DNA of 64,000 bases from Promethearchaeati archaeon SRVP18_Atabeyarchaeia-1. GTDB lineage: Archaea; Asgardarchaeota; Atabeyarchaeia; Atabeyarchaeales; Atabeyarchaeaceae. The stretch covers positions 2,744,652 through 2,808,651 of the forward strand of contig CP147779.1 in the NCBI GenBank assembly GCA_037308085.1, read 5' to 3'. Numbering within the stretch: position 1 is the stretch's first letter; each line of letters begins with the position of its first letter. The notes beneath the pieces were generated by a model. It ran no database searches. It saw nothing but the letters and a program-made list of their open reading frames with translations, and was not told the origin of the DNA. The position numbers were made by a program, and so were the translations under genes. Positions 34,862 through 48,547 of the stretch are shown here, in pieces.

Positions 34862-35575
34862 TCATCTACGACCCTTAGTGACTGCAATCGCAACGACAGC
34901 GACTAATAATATTACAGCCCCGCCACCCAGAACCAGCGCTGTGGTCAGGTCGGCGCCCTGAGTCATGCTATTTGCCGTGAAGGAGGTCATGGTCCAGTTG
35001 AACCATCCTTGCCAGCCAGGAAAGCTGAGCCCAGTACACCAGTACACATCGGCTTTCACCGTTATTCCAGTAGCCCTGTCCCAGTACATCTCATATCCGA
35101 ATATATACGGAAGATCCATTATCTCCGCGTTGTAGTAGATGGTCAGAAACTGCCTATAGTTGACAAGTCTCTGCGAACCGGCAACGTCCATCACAATGGT
35201 CTTGTTGATCATCCTGGGATAGCCGTCATACTCCGCAATCTGATCCCCTGCCAATAGATCTCCCGCAATGATATAAGGCTCAATGAAGCCATGATAACGC
35301 TGCACGTCCGAGACGTAATGTATCGTGTAAGCTGCCGCTCCGTTTGAGTAGAAGAAGATCACGTCGTACGACACGCTAGTTCCGCTGATATTGGTGATAG
35401 ATATTGTTAGCCTGTCCCACTCTGGGACAGCCGAACAGACAAGGCTGTAGCTTGCCGTGTCTCCTACGTGAACGCCAGGATACCGGCTGACCGCAGCCCT
35501 GGAGCCATTTATTGTCGCCGAGACTGCCACGAGAACTAGAAGAGCAATGATAGCAAAACCACACTTCTTACTTAT
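34862..35575 (-). CDS. Secreted/surface protein with C-terminal TM anchor (probable ATA start)
   Basis: Extending to ATA 35575 gives the signal peptide (M)SKKCGFAIIALLVLVAVSA; 'GVHVGD...Y', 'YWDRATGI'; C-terminal TM plus basic tail. Confidence 0.75.
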   Translation of the reverse strand: MSKKCGFAIIALLVLVAVSATINGSRAAVSRYPGVHVGDTASYSLVCSAVPEWDRLTISITNISGTSVSYDVIFFYSNGAAAYTIHYVSDVQRYHGFIEPYIIAGDLLAGDQIAEYDGYPRMINKTIVMDVAGSQRLVNYRQFLTIYYNAEIMDLPYIFGYEMYWDRATGITVKADVYWCTGLSFPGWQGWFNWTMTSFTANSMTQGADLTTALVLGGGAVILLVAVVAIAVTKGRR

Positions 35576-35753
35576 ATGCTCCTCACCCCTAAACGGTCCC
35601 TACTCAGTACTATGATCTATGACACCCGGAGTATTGAACCTAGCGCTAAGCCTTGAAACGCAAAATTGCTTGCCCAGTGACCGACTGGCAACGTAGCAAC
35701 CTTTAGATGAAATGACAAGTTTAATTTAGGTTGTACATTACTCTTCAAATTGG

Positions 35754-42915: not shown

Positions 42916-44187
42916 CTACTCGCCACCTCCAATGCTTTTTGCGACAAGCTCTGTGAGATCATAATACTCCATCGAGGAGCCACGAGACTTAAGGCCATCC
43001 CTAAAGTTTGTCCCACAGAAGGGGCAGCTTGAGACGAGAGCTTGTGCGCCCGTTGACTCCGCCTCTTCAAGTCGTTGATTCGCAGTCCAGAGAGCAAAGT
43101 CTGGGTATGCTGCCTTGACGCCTGCACCAGCCCCGCAGCAGTATGCGTATTCACGGATTCTTTCCATCTCGACGAGCTCGACGCCGGGTATCTGTTTGAG
43201 AACATTCCTCGGAGCATCATACACGCCGCCGGCTCCTCGGCGCTCGGGTTTCGGTGGATTGTAAATGTATACGAGGGTAAGTACCTCAACCTTCTGTCCA
43301 TGCCATGGTAGATATGGCTCAGCCATTCTGCCTAGATGGCAAGGATCATGGTATGTGACCTTGAGAGGTATTTTTCTGTTAAGTTTGAGTCGCTGCGCTT
43401 TGAGAAGACTCTCGGTTAACTGCGAAATATGTAGGACCTCGAAATCATGTTTGACGAAGCGCGGGTATTCAACTTTGAGCATGTTGTAGCAGCCTGCGCA
43501 ACTTGTTATAATGCGCTTGATCCCTGCTTCCCTGAACTTTGCCACGTTGTCTTCCATTATCTTGATGGCTCGTTTCCTGTCCCCTACTCTGTAGACAGGG
43601 CTTCCACAGCAGAACTCATCGGAGCCCATGAGCCTGAAGCCTTCTTTCGCGGCATTGAGGATCTTTGCAGTGGCCAATGCGATCTCCTCTCGTCTGTACG
43701 CTGCCGTGCAGCCCACAAAAAACAGGGTTGAGGAGGACTTGTCCACAACGATGTCGTCAGTGAGCCAAGCTGGTCTCTTTTCAGTGGGCTCACCGTAAGG
43801 GTTGTGGTATCGTTCAACCAAGTTTATGTACTCCTGGTGTTTTGGCATTGGTCCCGCGCCTGACTCGACAGCCGCGACTCTGAACTCATGAATCGCCTCA
43901 TTTGGCTCGAGGTCGTAAACCCACTTGCAGGAGACCTCGCAGGCACCACAATTGGTGCATCTGTAGAGCGCATTGAGCGTCTCGGGAGTGAGCTGTACTC
44001 GGCCTTTGTGGTAGGCATCCGCCATTATCATTCGGCCTCCACCCGAATATGCGTGGAAGTTGTATTTCTCAATCGAAGGGCAGATGTGAGAAAACCTTTT
44101 ACTCTTGATTTGTAGTTGAGGCAAGAACTTGCAGTTCGAACATCTGACGCAGTTATCCATCATTTCTTCTAGACTTGCGAGTGTCAT
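42916..44187 (-). CDS. Fe-S oxidoreductase with CCG domains (HdrD/GlcF/GlpC-like)
   Basis: CxxCxxC ferredoxin motifs, 'CCG' twice, 'YHDPCHLGR', 'SCPFC'; ATG 44187 is coupled (ATGA) to the upstream gene. Confidence 0.9.
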   Translation of the reverse strand: MTLASLEEMMDNCVRCSNCKFLPQLQIKSKRFSHICPSIEKYNFHAYSGGGRMIMADAYHKGRVQLTPETLNALYRCTNCGACEVSCKWVYDLEPNEAIHEFRVAAVESGAGPMPKHQEYINLVERYHNPYGEPTEKRPAWLTDDIVVDKSSSTLFFVGCTAAYRREEIALATAKILNAAKEGFRLMGSDEFCCGSPVYRVGDRKRAIKIMEDNVAKFREAGIKRIITSCAGCYNMLKVEYPRFVKHDFEVLHISQLTESLLKAQRLKLNRKIPLKVTYHDPCHLGRMAEPYLPWHGQKVEVLTLVYIYNPPKPERRGAGGVYDAPRNVLKQIPGVELVEMERIREYAYCCGAGAGVKAAYPDFALWTANQRLEEAESTGAQALVSSCPFCGTNFRDGLKSRGSSMEYYDLTELVAKSIGGGE

Positions 44188-45680
44188 CGTTGCACCTCCT
44201 TGAAGCATAGCCGACCTGGATTCATGATCCCTTTGGGATCGAATATCTCTTTGACCCGCCGCATGGCCGATATCGTTTCGCGTGAGCACCGCTGAAAGAC
44301 AGAACCACTGAACTGGCCGTAGGGTCGGCTGAAGTAGGCTCCAGATTTGAGCAGTGCTTGGCTCCCTTCTAGGTAGAGAGTCTTAGCTCTTTGGACATCT
44401 GCTTGGCTAGCCGGATCGTAGAAGATATCACATTCAAAATGGGCGTTAGCGCCTTGGCTTGTTGGCTGGATGTATGCGCCGATATGTTCAGCGGGGTAAC
44501 CTTTTTTGGTTGATACGCTTCTGAAATCTGCCCAGAGCGCGGGAGTAGCGTCCAGGGTTGTAAGGGCAAAAACCTCTTGGCATCCTCCCGAAAACCTTAG
44601 CTTCCAATAGGGATTCTCACTCGTGACTCCGACAAGCCCTGAAACATCCTTCTTGGTTATCTTGCTGATTCTTTCCTGGAGCTTGATCCCCGAACTGGCT
44701 GCAATGTCACCGGTATCAGCAATCCGGTAGTCCAGCTCCTCCTTCGCCATGTCACCATGCCCGGATAGAGTAATAATAAGGTTCCAAGGTAGAAGCGTCT
44801 TTCGAAGGGCATCAATTTCTCTGTGAGTTTTCCTTAGGGCACAAGAAAGGCTCATTGAATTCAAGATGAAGAGGTCATCAGAGAGCTTTCTCCTGAGCAA
44901 GGCATAGACTAAACCTGTGAGGTCCTCGATCTGTCTGGATTGCACGAACAGGATCTTCTGCACACTTGGTGCTATTTCACATTTCACTGATGCCCAAGTA
45001 ACGATTCCTATTGAGCCCTGCGAACCTTGGATGAGTCTGAACGGATCAAACTGGGAGGGCCCCAATGGGTTCTTTTGAGCTTGGCCAGAAGCCCACTGCT
45101 CCTCTAGGCTGCCTGGTCCAGCTGCGGAACCCGTCCTGAAGAGATCTCCGCTTCCGAACACAACTTCAGTGCACAACAGTGGATCTGATGAGTCCCAATG
45201 ATACCGAGGCGCGGTGATGGGCTCTCTGTCCAAGCATCCAGCGACAACGGATTTTGAGCGTCTCGGTAGTAATGGGAGGAGAGGCCTCAGCCCATGCTTC
45301 GAAAGCTCTTTCACAAACTCAGCGTAGGTGACCCCCGCTTCAACCATCGCCACCTTGTTAGCCCGGTCAACCCGAAGGATCCTATTCATTTTGGACAGAT
45401 TCACGATAACTGAATTCCCTGACTGTGGTATCGTATCGCCGCGAAGTCTAGGGCCTCCTGAGCTTACCGGCACTATTGGAACCGACTTCGCATTAGCGAG
45501 TTCCACAACCCGCTTCACCTGGTCCACCGTCCGCGGCCAGACGACGCATGTGGGTATTCTGGTCTCGCTAAGGGTTTTCGCTCCTGAGTACTCCTTCAAA
45601 TCGCGAGGATCGGTGCTTACATTTTCGCCGCCGACGATCGCCATGAATGTTCTTGCAAGACTTTCTGCCAACCTAGTCAT
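44184..45680 (-). CDS. FAD-binding oxidoreductase (VAO/GlcD family)
   Basis: 'VVWPRTVDQV', 'MNRILRVD', 'GSQGSIGIVT', 'FDPKGIMNPG'. Confidence 0.88.
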   Translation of the reverse strand: MTRLAESLARTFMAIVGGENVSTDPRDLKEYSGAKTLSETRIPTCVVWPRTVDQVKRVVELANAKSVPIVPVSSGGPRLRGDTIPQSGNSVIVNLSKMNRILRVDRANKVAMVEAGVTYAEFVKELSKHGLRPLLPLLPRRSKSVVAGCLDREPITAPRYHWDSSDPLLCTEVVFGSGDLFRTGSAAGPGSLEEQWASGQAQKNPLGPSQFDPFRLIQGSQGSIGIVTWASVKCEIAPSVQKILFVQSRQIEDLTGLVYALLRRKLSDDLFILNSMSLSCALRKTHREIDALRKTLLPWNLIITLSGHGDMAKEELDYRIADTGDIAASSGIKLQERISKITKKDVSGLVGVTSENPYWKLRFSGGCQEVFALTTLDATPALWADFRSVSTKKGYPAEHIGAYIQPTSQGANAHFECDIFYDPASQADVQRAKTLYLEGSQALLKSGAYFSRPYGQFSGSVFQRCSRETISAMRRVKEIFDPKGIMNPGRLCFKEVQR

Positions 45681-46258
45681 CCCTTCTCCAATAGGATTGC
45701 ATTTGTCCTGAGAAGCTACTTAAGCCTAGCCGTGCGCGCCTCAGACAATTCGGGACAGGCTTAGCCCTCTCTGGCGGGGGATCTGGTACTGCGGACCCTT
45801 CTGTACTATCACGTAGCTTCCTTGGTCTAATCATTCTCCATGCATTCTCCGCGGCGAAAAGTTGACTCTGAAAAGACCAGAAGCCTAAACGCGCCTCAAC
45901 GGCACCCGACACGCCGAGGCTAGCTCGGTCCATGAACCAGGAAGCCAACACCCTTCAAGGGGTTGGTAGCTCGCAAAGTGGCAGTGCAGCTTAAGAGGGG
46001 TCAGCACATGACTCTGTAGGATATAAAGCAATAAGGACATGGGACCAAGAAGCCGAGGAAGTTCCACGGCCAGAGCACAGCCTTTCTTTTCGCTGTCATC
46101 GAAGAAACGATATTCCATGAGAATAAATCGCATGAGATTGATGCCTATCGGCACCTCCAAATGCAGCTTCTTTCGGATGCCTTGTCCCTCTCCGATCTCT
46201 TTCTACAGCCATGCCTCTGCCCAGCACTCCCTCTTGAAACGGTAGAAACAGAGAAGAG

Positions 46259-46487
46259 TGGTCCCGGCGGCAGGAGTCTCACCGATGATCTATGATCGTC
46301 AGCTTTGAACCTGCGACCATTGCCGGATGCGGGTTATTTCCCGTACCAGACGGTGTCCGAGCGGGAGCTAACAACTTCCTTGCGAGATACATCACGTATC
46401 ATCTGCATCCCACTACAGCCGCCCGCTCTGGAGTGCAGACTGAGCCAAGATTCTTTAACCAAGTCTGTACCACTGAGCTACGCCGGG
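46259..46487 (-). tRNA. tRNA-Tyr(GUA) with four introns (20/21, 37/38, about 43/44, 59/60), CCA encoded
   Basis: Exons 46487-46469, 46429-46413, 46354-46349, 46319-46304 and 46275-46259 join to CCCGGCG TA GCTC AGTGGTA GAGC G GGCGG CTGTAGA CCGTC TGGTC GCAGG TTCAAAT CCTGC CGCCGGG A CCA (75 nt; C1-G72 and A73 are archaeal Tyr identity elements). BHB or relaxed BHB motifs at the junctions. Confidence 0.9.
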
Positions 46488-46516
46488 ACCCTGTGTTGTG
46501 TTTCAAAGAAGGAAGG

Positions 46517-46532
46517 TATATTAAGGGTTTTG
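46517..46532 (-). promoter_or_regulatory. BRE/TATA promoter of tRNA-Tyr
   Basis: AAAACCC-TTAATATA about 30 nt upstream of tRNA position 1. Confidence 0.6.
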
Positions 46533-46597
46533 GTTTGGAGGGGCTCCATCCTGAATTGAGGGGTTTCGAAGCATTTGCTGCCCAATATGATGGCAGA

Positions 46598-48547
46598 CTA
46601 GACTTGGTCATCTGTTTGAACGACCTTCCTCAATTTCGTCGAGACTGATGGGTACTTGTTGAGATTCTTGTGTGGAAGTAATATTGAGGCTACGAACTCT
46701 CTTCTGAAGCCCTCTTCAGCCATCAGCTCAACGTACTTGATTTGCCGCGATAATCTGTCTGCAAGTCCTCTGGTGCTTCTTGATGTCAGCGCCATTTTCG
46801 CTCCTGCGAGCGCCGTGTTTCCTGCAAACGTGATTTTCCTGGTTGGGATATCTGGTATCAAACCTATTGTTTTCGCATTTTCTGGGTTCAGGTAGTTACC
46901 GAAAGCTCCTGCGATGTATACGTGGCCAATGTCTTCTTCTCTTATTCGTTTCTTCTGCATCAGAATTTCGCATCCAGTGTGTAGCGCTGACTTGGCGAGC
47001 TGTATTTCACTGATGTCTTTGGCTGAAACTGTGATGTCCCTGTTTATTGCGGTCTGGTCTCTCTTGGCGACTATGAATGACATTCCGCTGCCTTCTCCAT
47101 CTTGCTCTACAACCAGTCTGTCTGTCGTGATAGTTTCTTTGTTGAATCTTCCCCTTGTTGAAATGATTCCACTCTTCAGTAGCTCGGCGACGACGTCGAC
47201 CATTGCTGATCCGCATATTCCTATCGGTTTCTGGTCTCCTATGGTTTCATACTCAACCTCGAATGTCTTCGGTTTGATCCTGACTTTTTCGATGGCTCCG
47301 GCTACTGCTTTCATGCCGTACTTGATTTGGGTTCCTTCGAATGCGGGTCCCGCCGCACATGAGCATGCGAGGAGTTCCTGCTTGTTTCCCAAAAAGACTT
47401 CGCCGTTGGTTCCGACATCGACGAGGAGGCTCATCTCATCCTTATCGTGTATTGCGGTGGCTATTACGTCTGCCACTGCGTCTGCCCCGACAAATCCTGC
47501 AACACAGGGCAACACATGCACATTCCCTTCTGGACATATCTTTAAGCCGATTCTTCTTGCCTCAACGTCGATGGCGCTCTTCACGGCAGGCACGTATGGC
47601 GCCAGGGAGAGGAACTTCGGTTCGATGCCCAGGAAAAGGTGGGTCATCACTGTATTCCCAACAACCGTGACCTCGTGTATCCTGCCAATTTGGGCTTTCC
47701 CTGCATCTTTGCAGGCTGACTCAATTACGGTATCTATTCCATCTACAACCAGTTTCATTATCGCCTGCCGGTTTTCTGGATTTTGCGTGGCGTAGCAGAT
47801 CCGGCTTAGAATGTCCTCCCCGTGTTGTATTTGTGGGTTTTCCATCATGCCGGCGGAGGTGATCTCTCCTGTGTTCAGGTTAACTAGGTAGCAGACGATC
47901 TTGGAGGTTCCAATGTCTACTGCTGCGCCATAGTTATCCCCGGTTGTATCACCTGGCTCGATATCGATGATTTCCTTTTCATTCCATGTTGTCGCGGTCA
48001 CATTCCAATTGGCCGCACGTACGACATTCGCGAGGTCTTTTGAAACTTCGAACCTAATCTTGAGTCCTCGTGCGCCTGTGGCAGCTTCTAGCCTTGACAA
48101 GAGTCCTTCATCATCAGCGACTGGATTGGAGATGGTGGGTTTCTGCAGTGTCAGGTAGGTTTTTCGAATTGCGGGTTCTAATGGGACGGGCTGCTCCATT
48201 CCCTTTACCTGAATCCTCCTGAAGCCCAGCCTGCTTTCGCTCGGCACGAAGACTGCGACTGCTCCCGCAGCGTTGGGGTCTCGGAGATTGATCCTTGCGG
48301 CACATGCTAGGCGGTACCCATCTTGAATCTCCTGTCGAGTTAGCAGCTCTTTCTCCTGAGGTGTGGCATCATTAAGTAGGCTTGAGCCCGAGACGACTTT
48401 GATTCTACACTTTCCGCAGGTGGTCTCTTTGCCGCACTCGGATCTTATTCCGACTCCGAGTTCCTCTGCGGCGTCAAGGATGCGTGTTCCGGTCTTAAAG
48501 CGACCCCGCTTCCCCGTTGGCTCAAATATTACCGTTATCGTCTCCAA
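46598..48547 (-). CDS. ASKHA-domain corrinoid reactivation protein (RACo/AcsV-like) with N-terminal 2Fe-2S domain
   Basis: 'ECGKETTCGKC...RLAC', 'VDIGTS', 'GFVGADAVA', 'DVGTNGE', 'AAGPAFEG', 'AGAFG'. Confidence 0.92.
   Translation of the reverse strand: METITVIFEPTGKRGRFKTGTRILDAAEELGVGIRSECGKETTCGKCRIKVVSGSSLLNDATPQEKELLTRQEIQDGYRLACAARINLRDPNAAGAVAVFVPSESRLGFRRIQVKGMEQPVPLEPAIRKTYLTLQKPTISNPVADDEGLLSRLEAATGARGLKIRFEVSKDLANVVRAANWNVTATTWNEKEIIDIEPGDTTGDNYGAAVDIGTSKIVCYLVNLNTGEITSAGMMENPQIQHGEDILSRICYATQNPENRQAIMKLVVDGIDTVIESACKDAGKAQIGRIHEVTVVGNTVMTHLFLGIEPKFLSLAPYVPAVKSAIDVEARRIGLKICPEGNVHVLPCVAGFVGADAVADVIATAIHDKDEMSLLVDVGTNGEVFLGNKQELLACSCAAGPAFEGTQIKYGMKAVAGAIEKVRIKPKTFEVEYETIGDQKPIGICGSAMVDVVAELLKSGIISTRGRFNKETITTDRLVVEQDGEGSGMSFIVAKRDQTAINRDITVSAKDISEIQLAKSALHTGCEILMQKKRIREEDIGHVYIAGAFGNYLNPENAKTIGLIPDIPTRKITFAGNTALAGAKMALTSRSTRGLADRLSRQIKYVELMAEEGFRREFVASILLPHKNLNKYPSVSTKLRKVVQTDDQV

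Follow-up and report, generated by a model that had tools for sequence, protein, structure and literature searches.

A tRNA-Tyr gene of the Asgard archaeon Atabeyarchaeia-1 with four apparent introns, one of them absent from its closest relatives

tRNA genes carrying several introns have been described in Thermoproteales (Sugahara et al. 2008; reviewed by Fujishima and Kanai 2014, PMC4033280), for which a maximum of three introns per tRNA is stated. The original prediction for the gene described here, made from the DNA sequence, gave the same maximum; the figure is confirmed for that group, but it is outdated for archaea overall. In the Asgard genomes reported by Valentin-Alvarado et al. (2024, Nat Commun 15:6384, PMC11291895), 92-95% of the tRNA genes are interrupted, many of the introns being non-canonical, and tRNAs with four introns confirmed by R2DT are tabulated for Atabeyarchaeia-2 (Trp-CCA) and for Freyarchaeia (Arg-TCT, Ile2-CAT and Leu-GAG). 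Moreover, a recent preprint (Goswami et al. 2026, 10.64898/2026.10.13.758758) puts the number of intervening sequences in these families at 2.2 per gene, with a maximum of five, and states that tRNAscan-SE misses about 30% of the introns and that most of the reconstructed gains are terminal.

For Atabeyarchaeia-1 (Ca. Atabeyarchaeum deiterrae, 2.81 Mb), the published table holds 40 tRNAs, one of them Tyr (PMC11291895). This is tRNA #26 of Supplementary Data 4 (PMC11291895), Tyr GTA, at 2791138-2790910 of 'SRVP_Atabeyarchaeota_1_curated.FINAL', with an intron at 2791063-2791006, an Infernal score of 40.9, one tRNAscan intron and three introns observed (R2DT). The genome is a single contig of 2,808,651 bp with 49.6% G+C, and the window, that is, the whole stretch of 64,000 nucleotides analyzed here, is its last 64 kb. 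With the window offset of 2,744,651, the published ends correspond to 46487-46259 and the published intron to intron 2 of Table 1, which means that the gene had already been annotated, with three introns rather than four. Other published tRNA coordinates also match the genome exactly, e.g., Arg-CCG at 231487-231577 (PMC11291895). The locus occupies 229 nt of the minus strand, 46259-46487, and its layout is given in Table 1. The original prediction of four inserts (39, 58, 29 and 28 nt) separating five exons proved exact in all its coordinates when checked against the sequence, as did its estimate that two-thirds of the gene is intron (154 of 229 nt, 67%).

Table 1. Features of the tRNA-Tyr locus, in window coordinates.
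Feature	Position	Strand	Length (nt)	Description
TATA-box-like element	46517..46524	-		TTAATATA; ~30-37 nt upstream of the mature 5' end; read from the sequence
Exon 1	46469..46487	-	19	acceptor 5' strand, U8, A9, D-stem 5' strand, D-loop to position 20
Intron 1	46430..46468	-	39	D-loop 20/21; strict hBHBh' motif
Exon 2	46413..46429	-	17	A21, D-stem 3' strand, G26, anticodon-stem 5' strand, anticodon loop to G37; anticodon GTA
Intron 2	46355..46412	-	58	canonical 37/38; relaxed BHB
Exon 3	46349..46354	-	6	ACCGTC: A38 and anticodon-stem 3' strand; 3' limit set by intron 3 register
Intron 3	46320..46348	-	29	variable region, ~43/44; weak BHB; this genome only
Exon 4	46304..46319	-	16	variable loop TGGTC, T-stem 5' strand, T-loop to A59
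Intron 4	46276..46303	-	28	T-loop 59/60; strict hBHBh' motif
Exon 5	46259..46275	-	17	U60, T-stem 3' strand, acceptor 3' strand, A73, encoded CCA

Removal of the four inserts leaves a 75-nt sequence that ARAGORN calls as tRNA-Tyr(gta), bearing out the predicted canonical tRNA-Tyr(GUA) with C1-G72, A73 and CCA. Its acceptor stem has 7 bp (CCCGGCG/CGCCGGG, then ACCA, so that CCA is encoded), its D-stem 4 bp, and its anticodon stem 5 bp, including one G.U pair, closing a 7-nt loop, CUGUAGA, with U33; the T-loop reads TTCAAAT and the variable loop, given the 29-nt register of intron 3, is UGGUC (5 nt). Among the tertiary and conserved nucleotides, U8, A14, G15-C48, G18-G19, U33, T54-T55-C56 and A58 are all present. 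C1-G72 and A73 are identity elements for archaeal and eukaryal TyrRS, and archaeal tRNA-Tyr belongs to class I. The unspliced locus received no call from ARAGORN and matched no Rfam model at the gathering threshold, and for these two programs the expectation that standard finders would miss the gene was correct; it failed for tRNAscan-SE -A, which found the gene at 40.9 bits, although with the canonical intron only. Two other calls overlapping the locus were set aside: the whole-genome ARAGORN run with introns allowed gave a 'tRNA-Arg(tct)' (window 45764-47432) whose 1,569-nt intron spans the Tyr locus, a false positive, and an antisense ORF at 46292-46648, which has no Pfam match, was taken as spurious.

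The locus was then compared with its relatives. A DNA search of 40 related genomes placed it in both other genomes of the family, namely the same-genus MAG LC30 (G001; contig JAHPYV010000107, orthologue at L002:1502-1705) and Atabeyarchaeia-2 (G002; CP147780.1), from the other genus. A metagenome scan with exon 5 added two loci, the orthologue L115 (Ga0315308_1004471) and L083, a Tyr gene that is more distant; the matches listed were mostly bacterial tRNAs, and these two alone among them were useful. In the four-way alignment (A3), the exons are identical to those of the three orthologues (G001, G002 and L115) at 75/75, 74/75 and 74/74 positions, whereas the introns are 54-76% identical. Exon 1 is identical and exon 5 invariant in all of them, and exon 2 is likewise invariant except for a 1-nt insertion in G001. 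This extra T (AGTAGC vs. AGAGC) would be expected to disturb the D-stem by a bulge or a C.U mismatch, and it may be an assembly error, the contig coverage being about 5x. The contrast between nearly identical exons and drifting introns, together with a precursor fold of z = -3.7 relative to shuffled sequences, indicates a layout beyond chance.

The four closely related versions of the gene have two, three, three and four introns, and most of the proposed exon junctions could be read directly in nature. L115 lacks introns 1 and 3, and its junction 1 is continuous (GCTCAGTGGT followed by AGAGC, read-through GCTCAGTGGTAGAGC). At the site of intron 3, exactly 29 nt are missing from G001, G002 and L115, in which ACCGTC leads directly into TGGTCGCAGG (contiguous ACCGTCTGGTCGCAGG). 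Intron 4 is present in these three, and it is L083 that has an uninterrupted T-loop, GGTTCAAATCCTGC, within the T-arm GCAGGTTCAAATCCTGC. Junctions 1, 3 and 4 thus occur as contiguous natural sequence, in L115, in G001, G002 and L115, and in L083, respectively. Homologues of intron 2 occupy position 37/38 in all three orthologues, and an intron-less counterpart is absent from the comparison set; the boundaries of this intron therefore rest on its canonical position, its BHB motif and the tRNAscan-SE call. Together with the motif scoring, these relatives uphold the predicted intron sites (20/21, 37/38, about 43/44 and 59/60), the one at 37/38 through occupied sites only.

The same comparison bears on the most skeptical reading of the locus, according to which it is not a tRNA gene and the tRNA is an artefact of four freely chosen removals. 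Relaxed BHB motifs often arise by chance, and in-silico splicing is indeed permissive: when another 247-nt locus was freely spliced under BHB guidance, ARAGORN accepted 2,970 of the 240,978 combinations as tRNAs, with many different anticodons. It is because motif-guided splicing is so permissive that the junction evidence matters, the comparison being independent of how the motifs are drawn. An artefact is contradicted by these comparative data, as three of the four junctions are uninterrupted in natural orthologues and the exons are invariant while the introns drift; in addition, tRNAscan-SE calls the locus independently, and a promoter-like element and CCA are in place. We consider that this reading has a practically negligible probability.

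Splicing motifs were assessed against a BHB criterion comprising a 4-bp central helix, two 3-nt bulges on opposite strands, a cut after the second bulge nucleotide (marked ↓ below) and at least one flanking helix. By this criterion, introns 1 and 4 have strict hBHBh' motifs and intron 2 a relaxed one. In intron 1, the central helix AGTG/CACT pairs at 4/4 positions between bulges GT↓A and CC↓A, with an outer helix of 4 bp provided by the D-stem (GCTC/GAGC) and an inner helix of 6 bp, CAGACT/AGTCTG, which shows a compensatory change with respect to G001 (GAGACT/AGTCTC). Intron 4 pairs at 4/4 positions in the central helix TTCA/TGAG, which is flanked by bulges AA↓G and AC↓T, and has an outer helix of 5 bp (T-stem) and an inner helix of 8 pairs, one mismatch allowed; the inner helices of G001, G002 and L115 differ in sequence and yet keep their pairing. 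The strict motif foreseen for intron 1 and the BHB fit foreseen for intron 4 were both found. For intron 2, the central helix CTGT/TCGG pairs at 3/4 positions, the outer helix is the anticodon stem (7 bp) and the inner helix is offset by 2 nt. The T.T mismatch of its central helix recurs in all orthologues, a G-to-A change in it retains the pair with T33, and the inner helix covaries among the orthologues (GGGA/TCCC, GGGG/CCCC and AGGG/CCCT). A layout of 1 nt, the inner hairpin, 4 nt and 2 nt uses up every nucleotide of introns 1, 3 and 4. As to the view that introns 2 and 3 have relaxed motifs, each central helix pairs at 3/4 positions, the motif of intron 2 being relaxed and that of intron 3 weak.

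Outside the family, two Thermoproteota MAG loci (L009:7345-7487 and L016:309-451, minus strand; one labelled Kor1) hold a tRNA-Tyr whose 19-nt exon 1 is identical to that of Atabeyarchaeia-1. They have strict BHB introns of 15 nt at 20/21 and of 12 nt at 59/60, both sites being shared with Atabeyarchaeia-1, and a third insert of about 41 nt near 37/38, for which the BHB central helix scores 2/4 using guessed boundaries. The shared sites may be either BHB hot spots or the places of very old introns.

Intron 3 is the element whose boundaries require most care. The duplication of TGGT at its edges allows five registers, an ambiguity that had been noted beforehand, and only the first of them gives a BHB; the other four, with 1-2/4 pairs in the central helix, were rejected. 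In the first register, the excised segment is 29 nt long, the central helix ACCG/CGGC pairs at 3/4 positions (A.C mismatch), the bulges are TC↓T and AA↓T, and the inner helix GGTACGGG/CCCGCATC pairs at 7/8 positions, while the outer helix, of 1 bp, is essentially none. We favor this register because it brings back UGGUC, the loop shared without change by all orthologues, and because its 3-nt bulges are clean and its inner helix abuts them. It is probably the correct one and the most likely of those considered, even though sequence alone does not settle the cut sites, and the 6-nt micro-exon of Table 1 depends on it. Regarding the 104-nt intermediate that retains intron 3 alone, the BHB fold has a predicted energy of -36.9 kcal/mol, 4-9 kcal/mol above its competitors, which are a cloverleaf with the insert hairpin (-40.8 to -44.4 kcal/mol) and the minimum-energy fold (-46.0 kcal/mol).

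That minimum-energy fold points to a different excision, of 23 nt (CGGG...GGCA), guided by a CTGG/CCGG helix, which would lengthen exon 3 to 11 nt and produce an 81-nt tRNA-Tyr with an 11-nt variable loop, UGGUAAUGGUC. Its central helix pairs at 4/4 positions at cut 144/167, and it recurs in the most stable fold predicted for the full precursor as well as for the intron-3-only intermediate (-46.0 vs. -36.9 kcal/mol for the 29-nt register). Its surroundings fit less well, since the 5' bulge lies in a 2x3 internal loop, the 3' bulge has 2 nt unless a U-A pair opens, and neither flanking helix is in register (outer 0, inner 1). The product would depart from the 5-nt UGGUC loop that is invariant in the three orthologues and we know of no class I tRNA whose variable loop has 11 unpaired nucleotides, which also counts against this excision. 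Altogether, we regard the 23-nt cut as improbable.

It can also be argued that the insert is not removed at all, and that the mature tRNA-Tyr carries it as a long extra arm in the variable region, or that the gene is crippled. The insert does make its own 8-bp hairpin, GGTACGGG/CCCGCATC, with one mismatch, and the cloverleaf with this hairpin is more stable than the BHB fold; furthermore, the published curation has three introns, and the variable-region insert may there have been seen as an enlarged loop. Nevertheless, archaeal tRNA-Tyr is class I and the orthologues hold a 5-nt loop, and the insert is built exactly as a BHB intron would be, from 1 nt, a hairpin, 4 nt and 2 nt. Retention would give a 34-nt variable region with 11 unpaired nucleotides after the arm, and we know of no class II arm of that size, which is a further point against it. 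Nor can the gene be dead, since the complete genome yielded no tRNA-Tyr gene besides this one. Retention, with or without function, thus seems very improbable to us. Taking the 23-nt cut and an uncut insert together, there is a small chance that the sole tRNA-Tyr of this organism works with an enlarged variable region; if so, a freshly inserted and poorly spliceable element would have been caught before its improvement or loss. Under the preferred 29-nt register, the central helix of intron 3 takes up nucleotides 38-41 of the anticodon stem and so excludes the intron 2 motif, or the mature fold, at the same time. This incompatibility implies either refolding of the precursor or stepwise splicing.

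As G001 of the same genus, G002 of the other genus and L115 all lack intron 3, this intron is most simply explained as a single recent gain on the terminal branch, specific to this genome. Such a gain would fit the finding of the preprint that gains are mostly terminal (10.64898/2026.10.13.758758). A blastn-short search of the genome with each of the four introns returned no copies elsewhere below E = 0.02. The TGGT direct repeat at the insertion site was considered as a general insertion signature by scoring boundary microhomology over 37 aligned tRNA pairs of Atabeyarchaeia-1 and Atabeyarchaeia-2, plus the Tyr pair from alignment A3, in which 15 insertions were clean. Microhomology summed to 18 where the null gave 10.5 +/- 4.0 (p = 0.05); without the Tyr case that had prompted the analysis, p was 0.18, so that a general signature is unsupported. 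The comparison of the two genomes over these 37 pairs and Tyr (loci L139-L178) contains at least 15 clean events of intron presence or absence. For instance, Gln-CTG has two introns in Atabeyarchaeia-1 and none in Atabeyarchaeia-2, and the six bases that open its T-loop intron, TCTCCC, match those of the downstream exon.

Whether the genome has another tRNA-Tyr gene, a point raised with the original prediction, was also evaluated. Over the whole genome, blastn-short with the spliced tRNA recovered only the exons of the gene itself, and neither ARAGORN nor Rfam gave a second tRNA-Tyr; likewise, a scan for acceptor pairs (7 bp, then NCCA), which is blind to genes without an encoded CCA, found no other tRNA-like locus with C1-G72 and A73, in line with the single Tyr of the published table. 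Standard tools (ARAGORN and Rfam) recover just 15-22 tRNAs genome-wide, which suggests that most of the tRNA genes are disrupted. As for the enzymes that such genes require, the genome encodes two EndA paralogues (PF01974, 104.5 and 65.5 bits) and RtcB from one gene (583.5 bits). The first EndA paralogue (209 aa; L137:1474-2103, minus strand) has its best match in the catalytic subunit of the Aeropyrum pernix heterotetramer (3p1z_B, E = 5e-46), with which it aligns throughout; the alignment spans what we take to be the region of the crenarchaeal loop linked to broad specificity, and the His of its GIDH motif is presumably the catalytic one. In the second paralogue (241 aa; L138:1084-1809, plus strand; 32% identical to the first), this His is replaced by Lys. 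Judging from these sequences, the pair may form an alpha/beta enzyme, a type for which cleavage of relaxed motifs is known.

Overall, we consider it likely that the locus is a functional tRNA-Tyr(GUA) gene, no second one having been found in Atabeyarchaeia-1, and that splicing removes four introns from its precursor to give a 75-nt tRNA. This proposal starts from a sequence, an architecture, a set of comparative junctions and enzyme genes that are directly established; from them we infer transcription, cleavage sites and an order of splicing, as follows. Transcription from the TATA-like promoter would yield a precursor of about 230 nt with four intervening sequences. The D-stem for intron 1, the T-stem for intron 4 and the anticodon stem for intron 2 would serve as outer helices for cleavage, introns 2 and 3 would call for refolding or stepwise splicing, and RtcB would ligate the exons into a canonical class I tRNA of 75 nt, its encoded CCA included. 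By analogy, TTAATATA would act as an archaeal promoter, and the orthologues carry similar upstream elements (CTTTAATAT / CTTAATAA); a scan for sigma-70 promoters and intrinsic terminators found nothing, as expected in an archaeon. The gene sits in the intergenic gap between two genes of the same strand, one for a RACo-like activator of corrinoid proteins (46598-48547; Fer2 and RACo domains) and one for an FAD-linked oxidase (44184-45680), neither of which has an evident tie to tRNA.

Further tRNA loci of the genome were seen in the course of the analysis. One of them, G000:C1:36840-37086, lies outside the window and is the 247-nt locus mentioned above; it has a perfect acceptor pair, the start of a D-arm, a T-arm and CCA, and it aligns with Ile-TAT of Atabeyarchaeia-2 (35441-35652) while being missing from the 40 published tRNAs of Atabeyarchaeia-1. 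This locus probably represents a tRNA-Ile(UAU) gene with a heavy load of interruptions, and brute-force splicing of it was uninformative precisely because so many 'tRNAs' with so many anticodons were accepted by ARAGORN. In the case of Lys-TTT (G000:C1:519373-519589), removal of the four published tRNAscan-SE introns leaves an 84-nt product that ARAGORN rejects, whereas extending the T-loop intron by 7 nt gives, after four removals, a valid 77-nt tRNA-Lys(ttt). The published boundary of that T-loop intron thus looks 7 nt short.

With regard to significance, neither this gene and its identity nor the lineage's extreme load of introns is new: the gene was listed in 2024, four-intron tRNAs were tabulated in the same work, and the load was surveyed further in the 2026 preprint, which reports up to five introns per gene. 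The novelty once hoped for in a tRNA with four introns is therefore gone, although, as the original prediction had itself allowed, such earlier reports take away the novelty and not the call. What may be new is that the curated count of three introns for this tRNA-Tyr appears, from the sequence comparison, to be one too low and should be four, and the gene may also serve as a neat case of a marginal splicing signal in a recently gained intron. As a discovery, the finding is of little weight. Its value is that of a worked example, in which four versions of a gene give the exact boundaries of intron presence and absence without recourse to a splicing motif, and in which a weak intron 3 motif competing with the anticodon stem provides a handy natural substrate for studying splicing order and the tolerance of an Asgard endonuclease.

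In comparison with known systems, the closest is the published entry for the same gene, which records three intervening sequences, while the orthologue alignment gives four. The tRNA-Tyr(GTA) of Atabeyarchaeia-2 (CP147780.1, 2741998-2741795), published with three introns, is next: its exons are identical at 74/75 positions, and its introns lie at 20/21, 37/38 and 59/60 with the same BHB layout, being 59-69% identical to those of Atabeyarchaeia-1, but it is without the 29-nt intron 3. The extra intron of Atabeyarchaeia-1 with respect to the three-intron orthologues is therefore its variable-region insert. The multi-intron tRNAs of Asgard archaea reported in the 2024 paper and the 2026 preprint share both the phenomenon and the lineage with this gene, which is a further instance of them, with no difference in kind. 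The Thermoproteales genes resemble it in their non-canonical BHB introns and in D- and T-loop sites with the arm stems as outer helices, and their introns are cut by a heteromeric EndA of broad specificity. They belong to another phylum, however, and their introns recur as related families, unlike the Tyr introns of Atabeyarchaeia-1, which are without copies elsewhere in the genome. Finally, the nuclear tRNA-Ile(UAU) of the red alga Cyanidioschyzon merolae has three introns, at D-arm, 37/38 and T-loop sites (Soma et al. 2013, PMC3728597), and RT-PCR showed that they are removed in order, the outer ones before the canonical one (PMC3728597). This is a eukaryotic gene with three introns whose splicing has been shown experimentally, whereas the Atabeyarchaeia-1 gene is known from its sequence; by analogy, the ordered removal in C. 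merolae may serve as a model for the stepwise splicing that the Atabeyarchaeia-1 tRNA-Tyr precursor would undergo.
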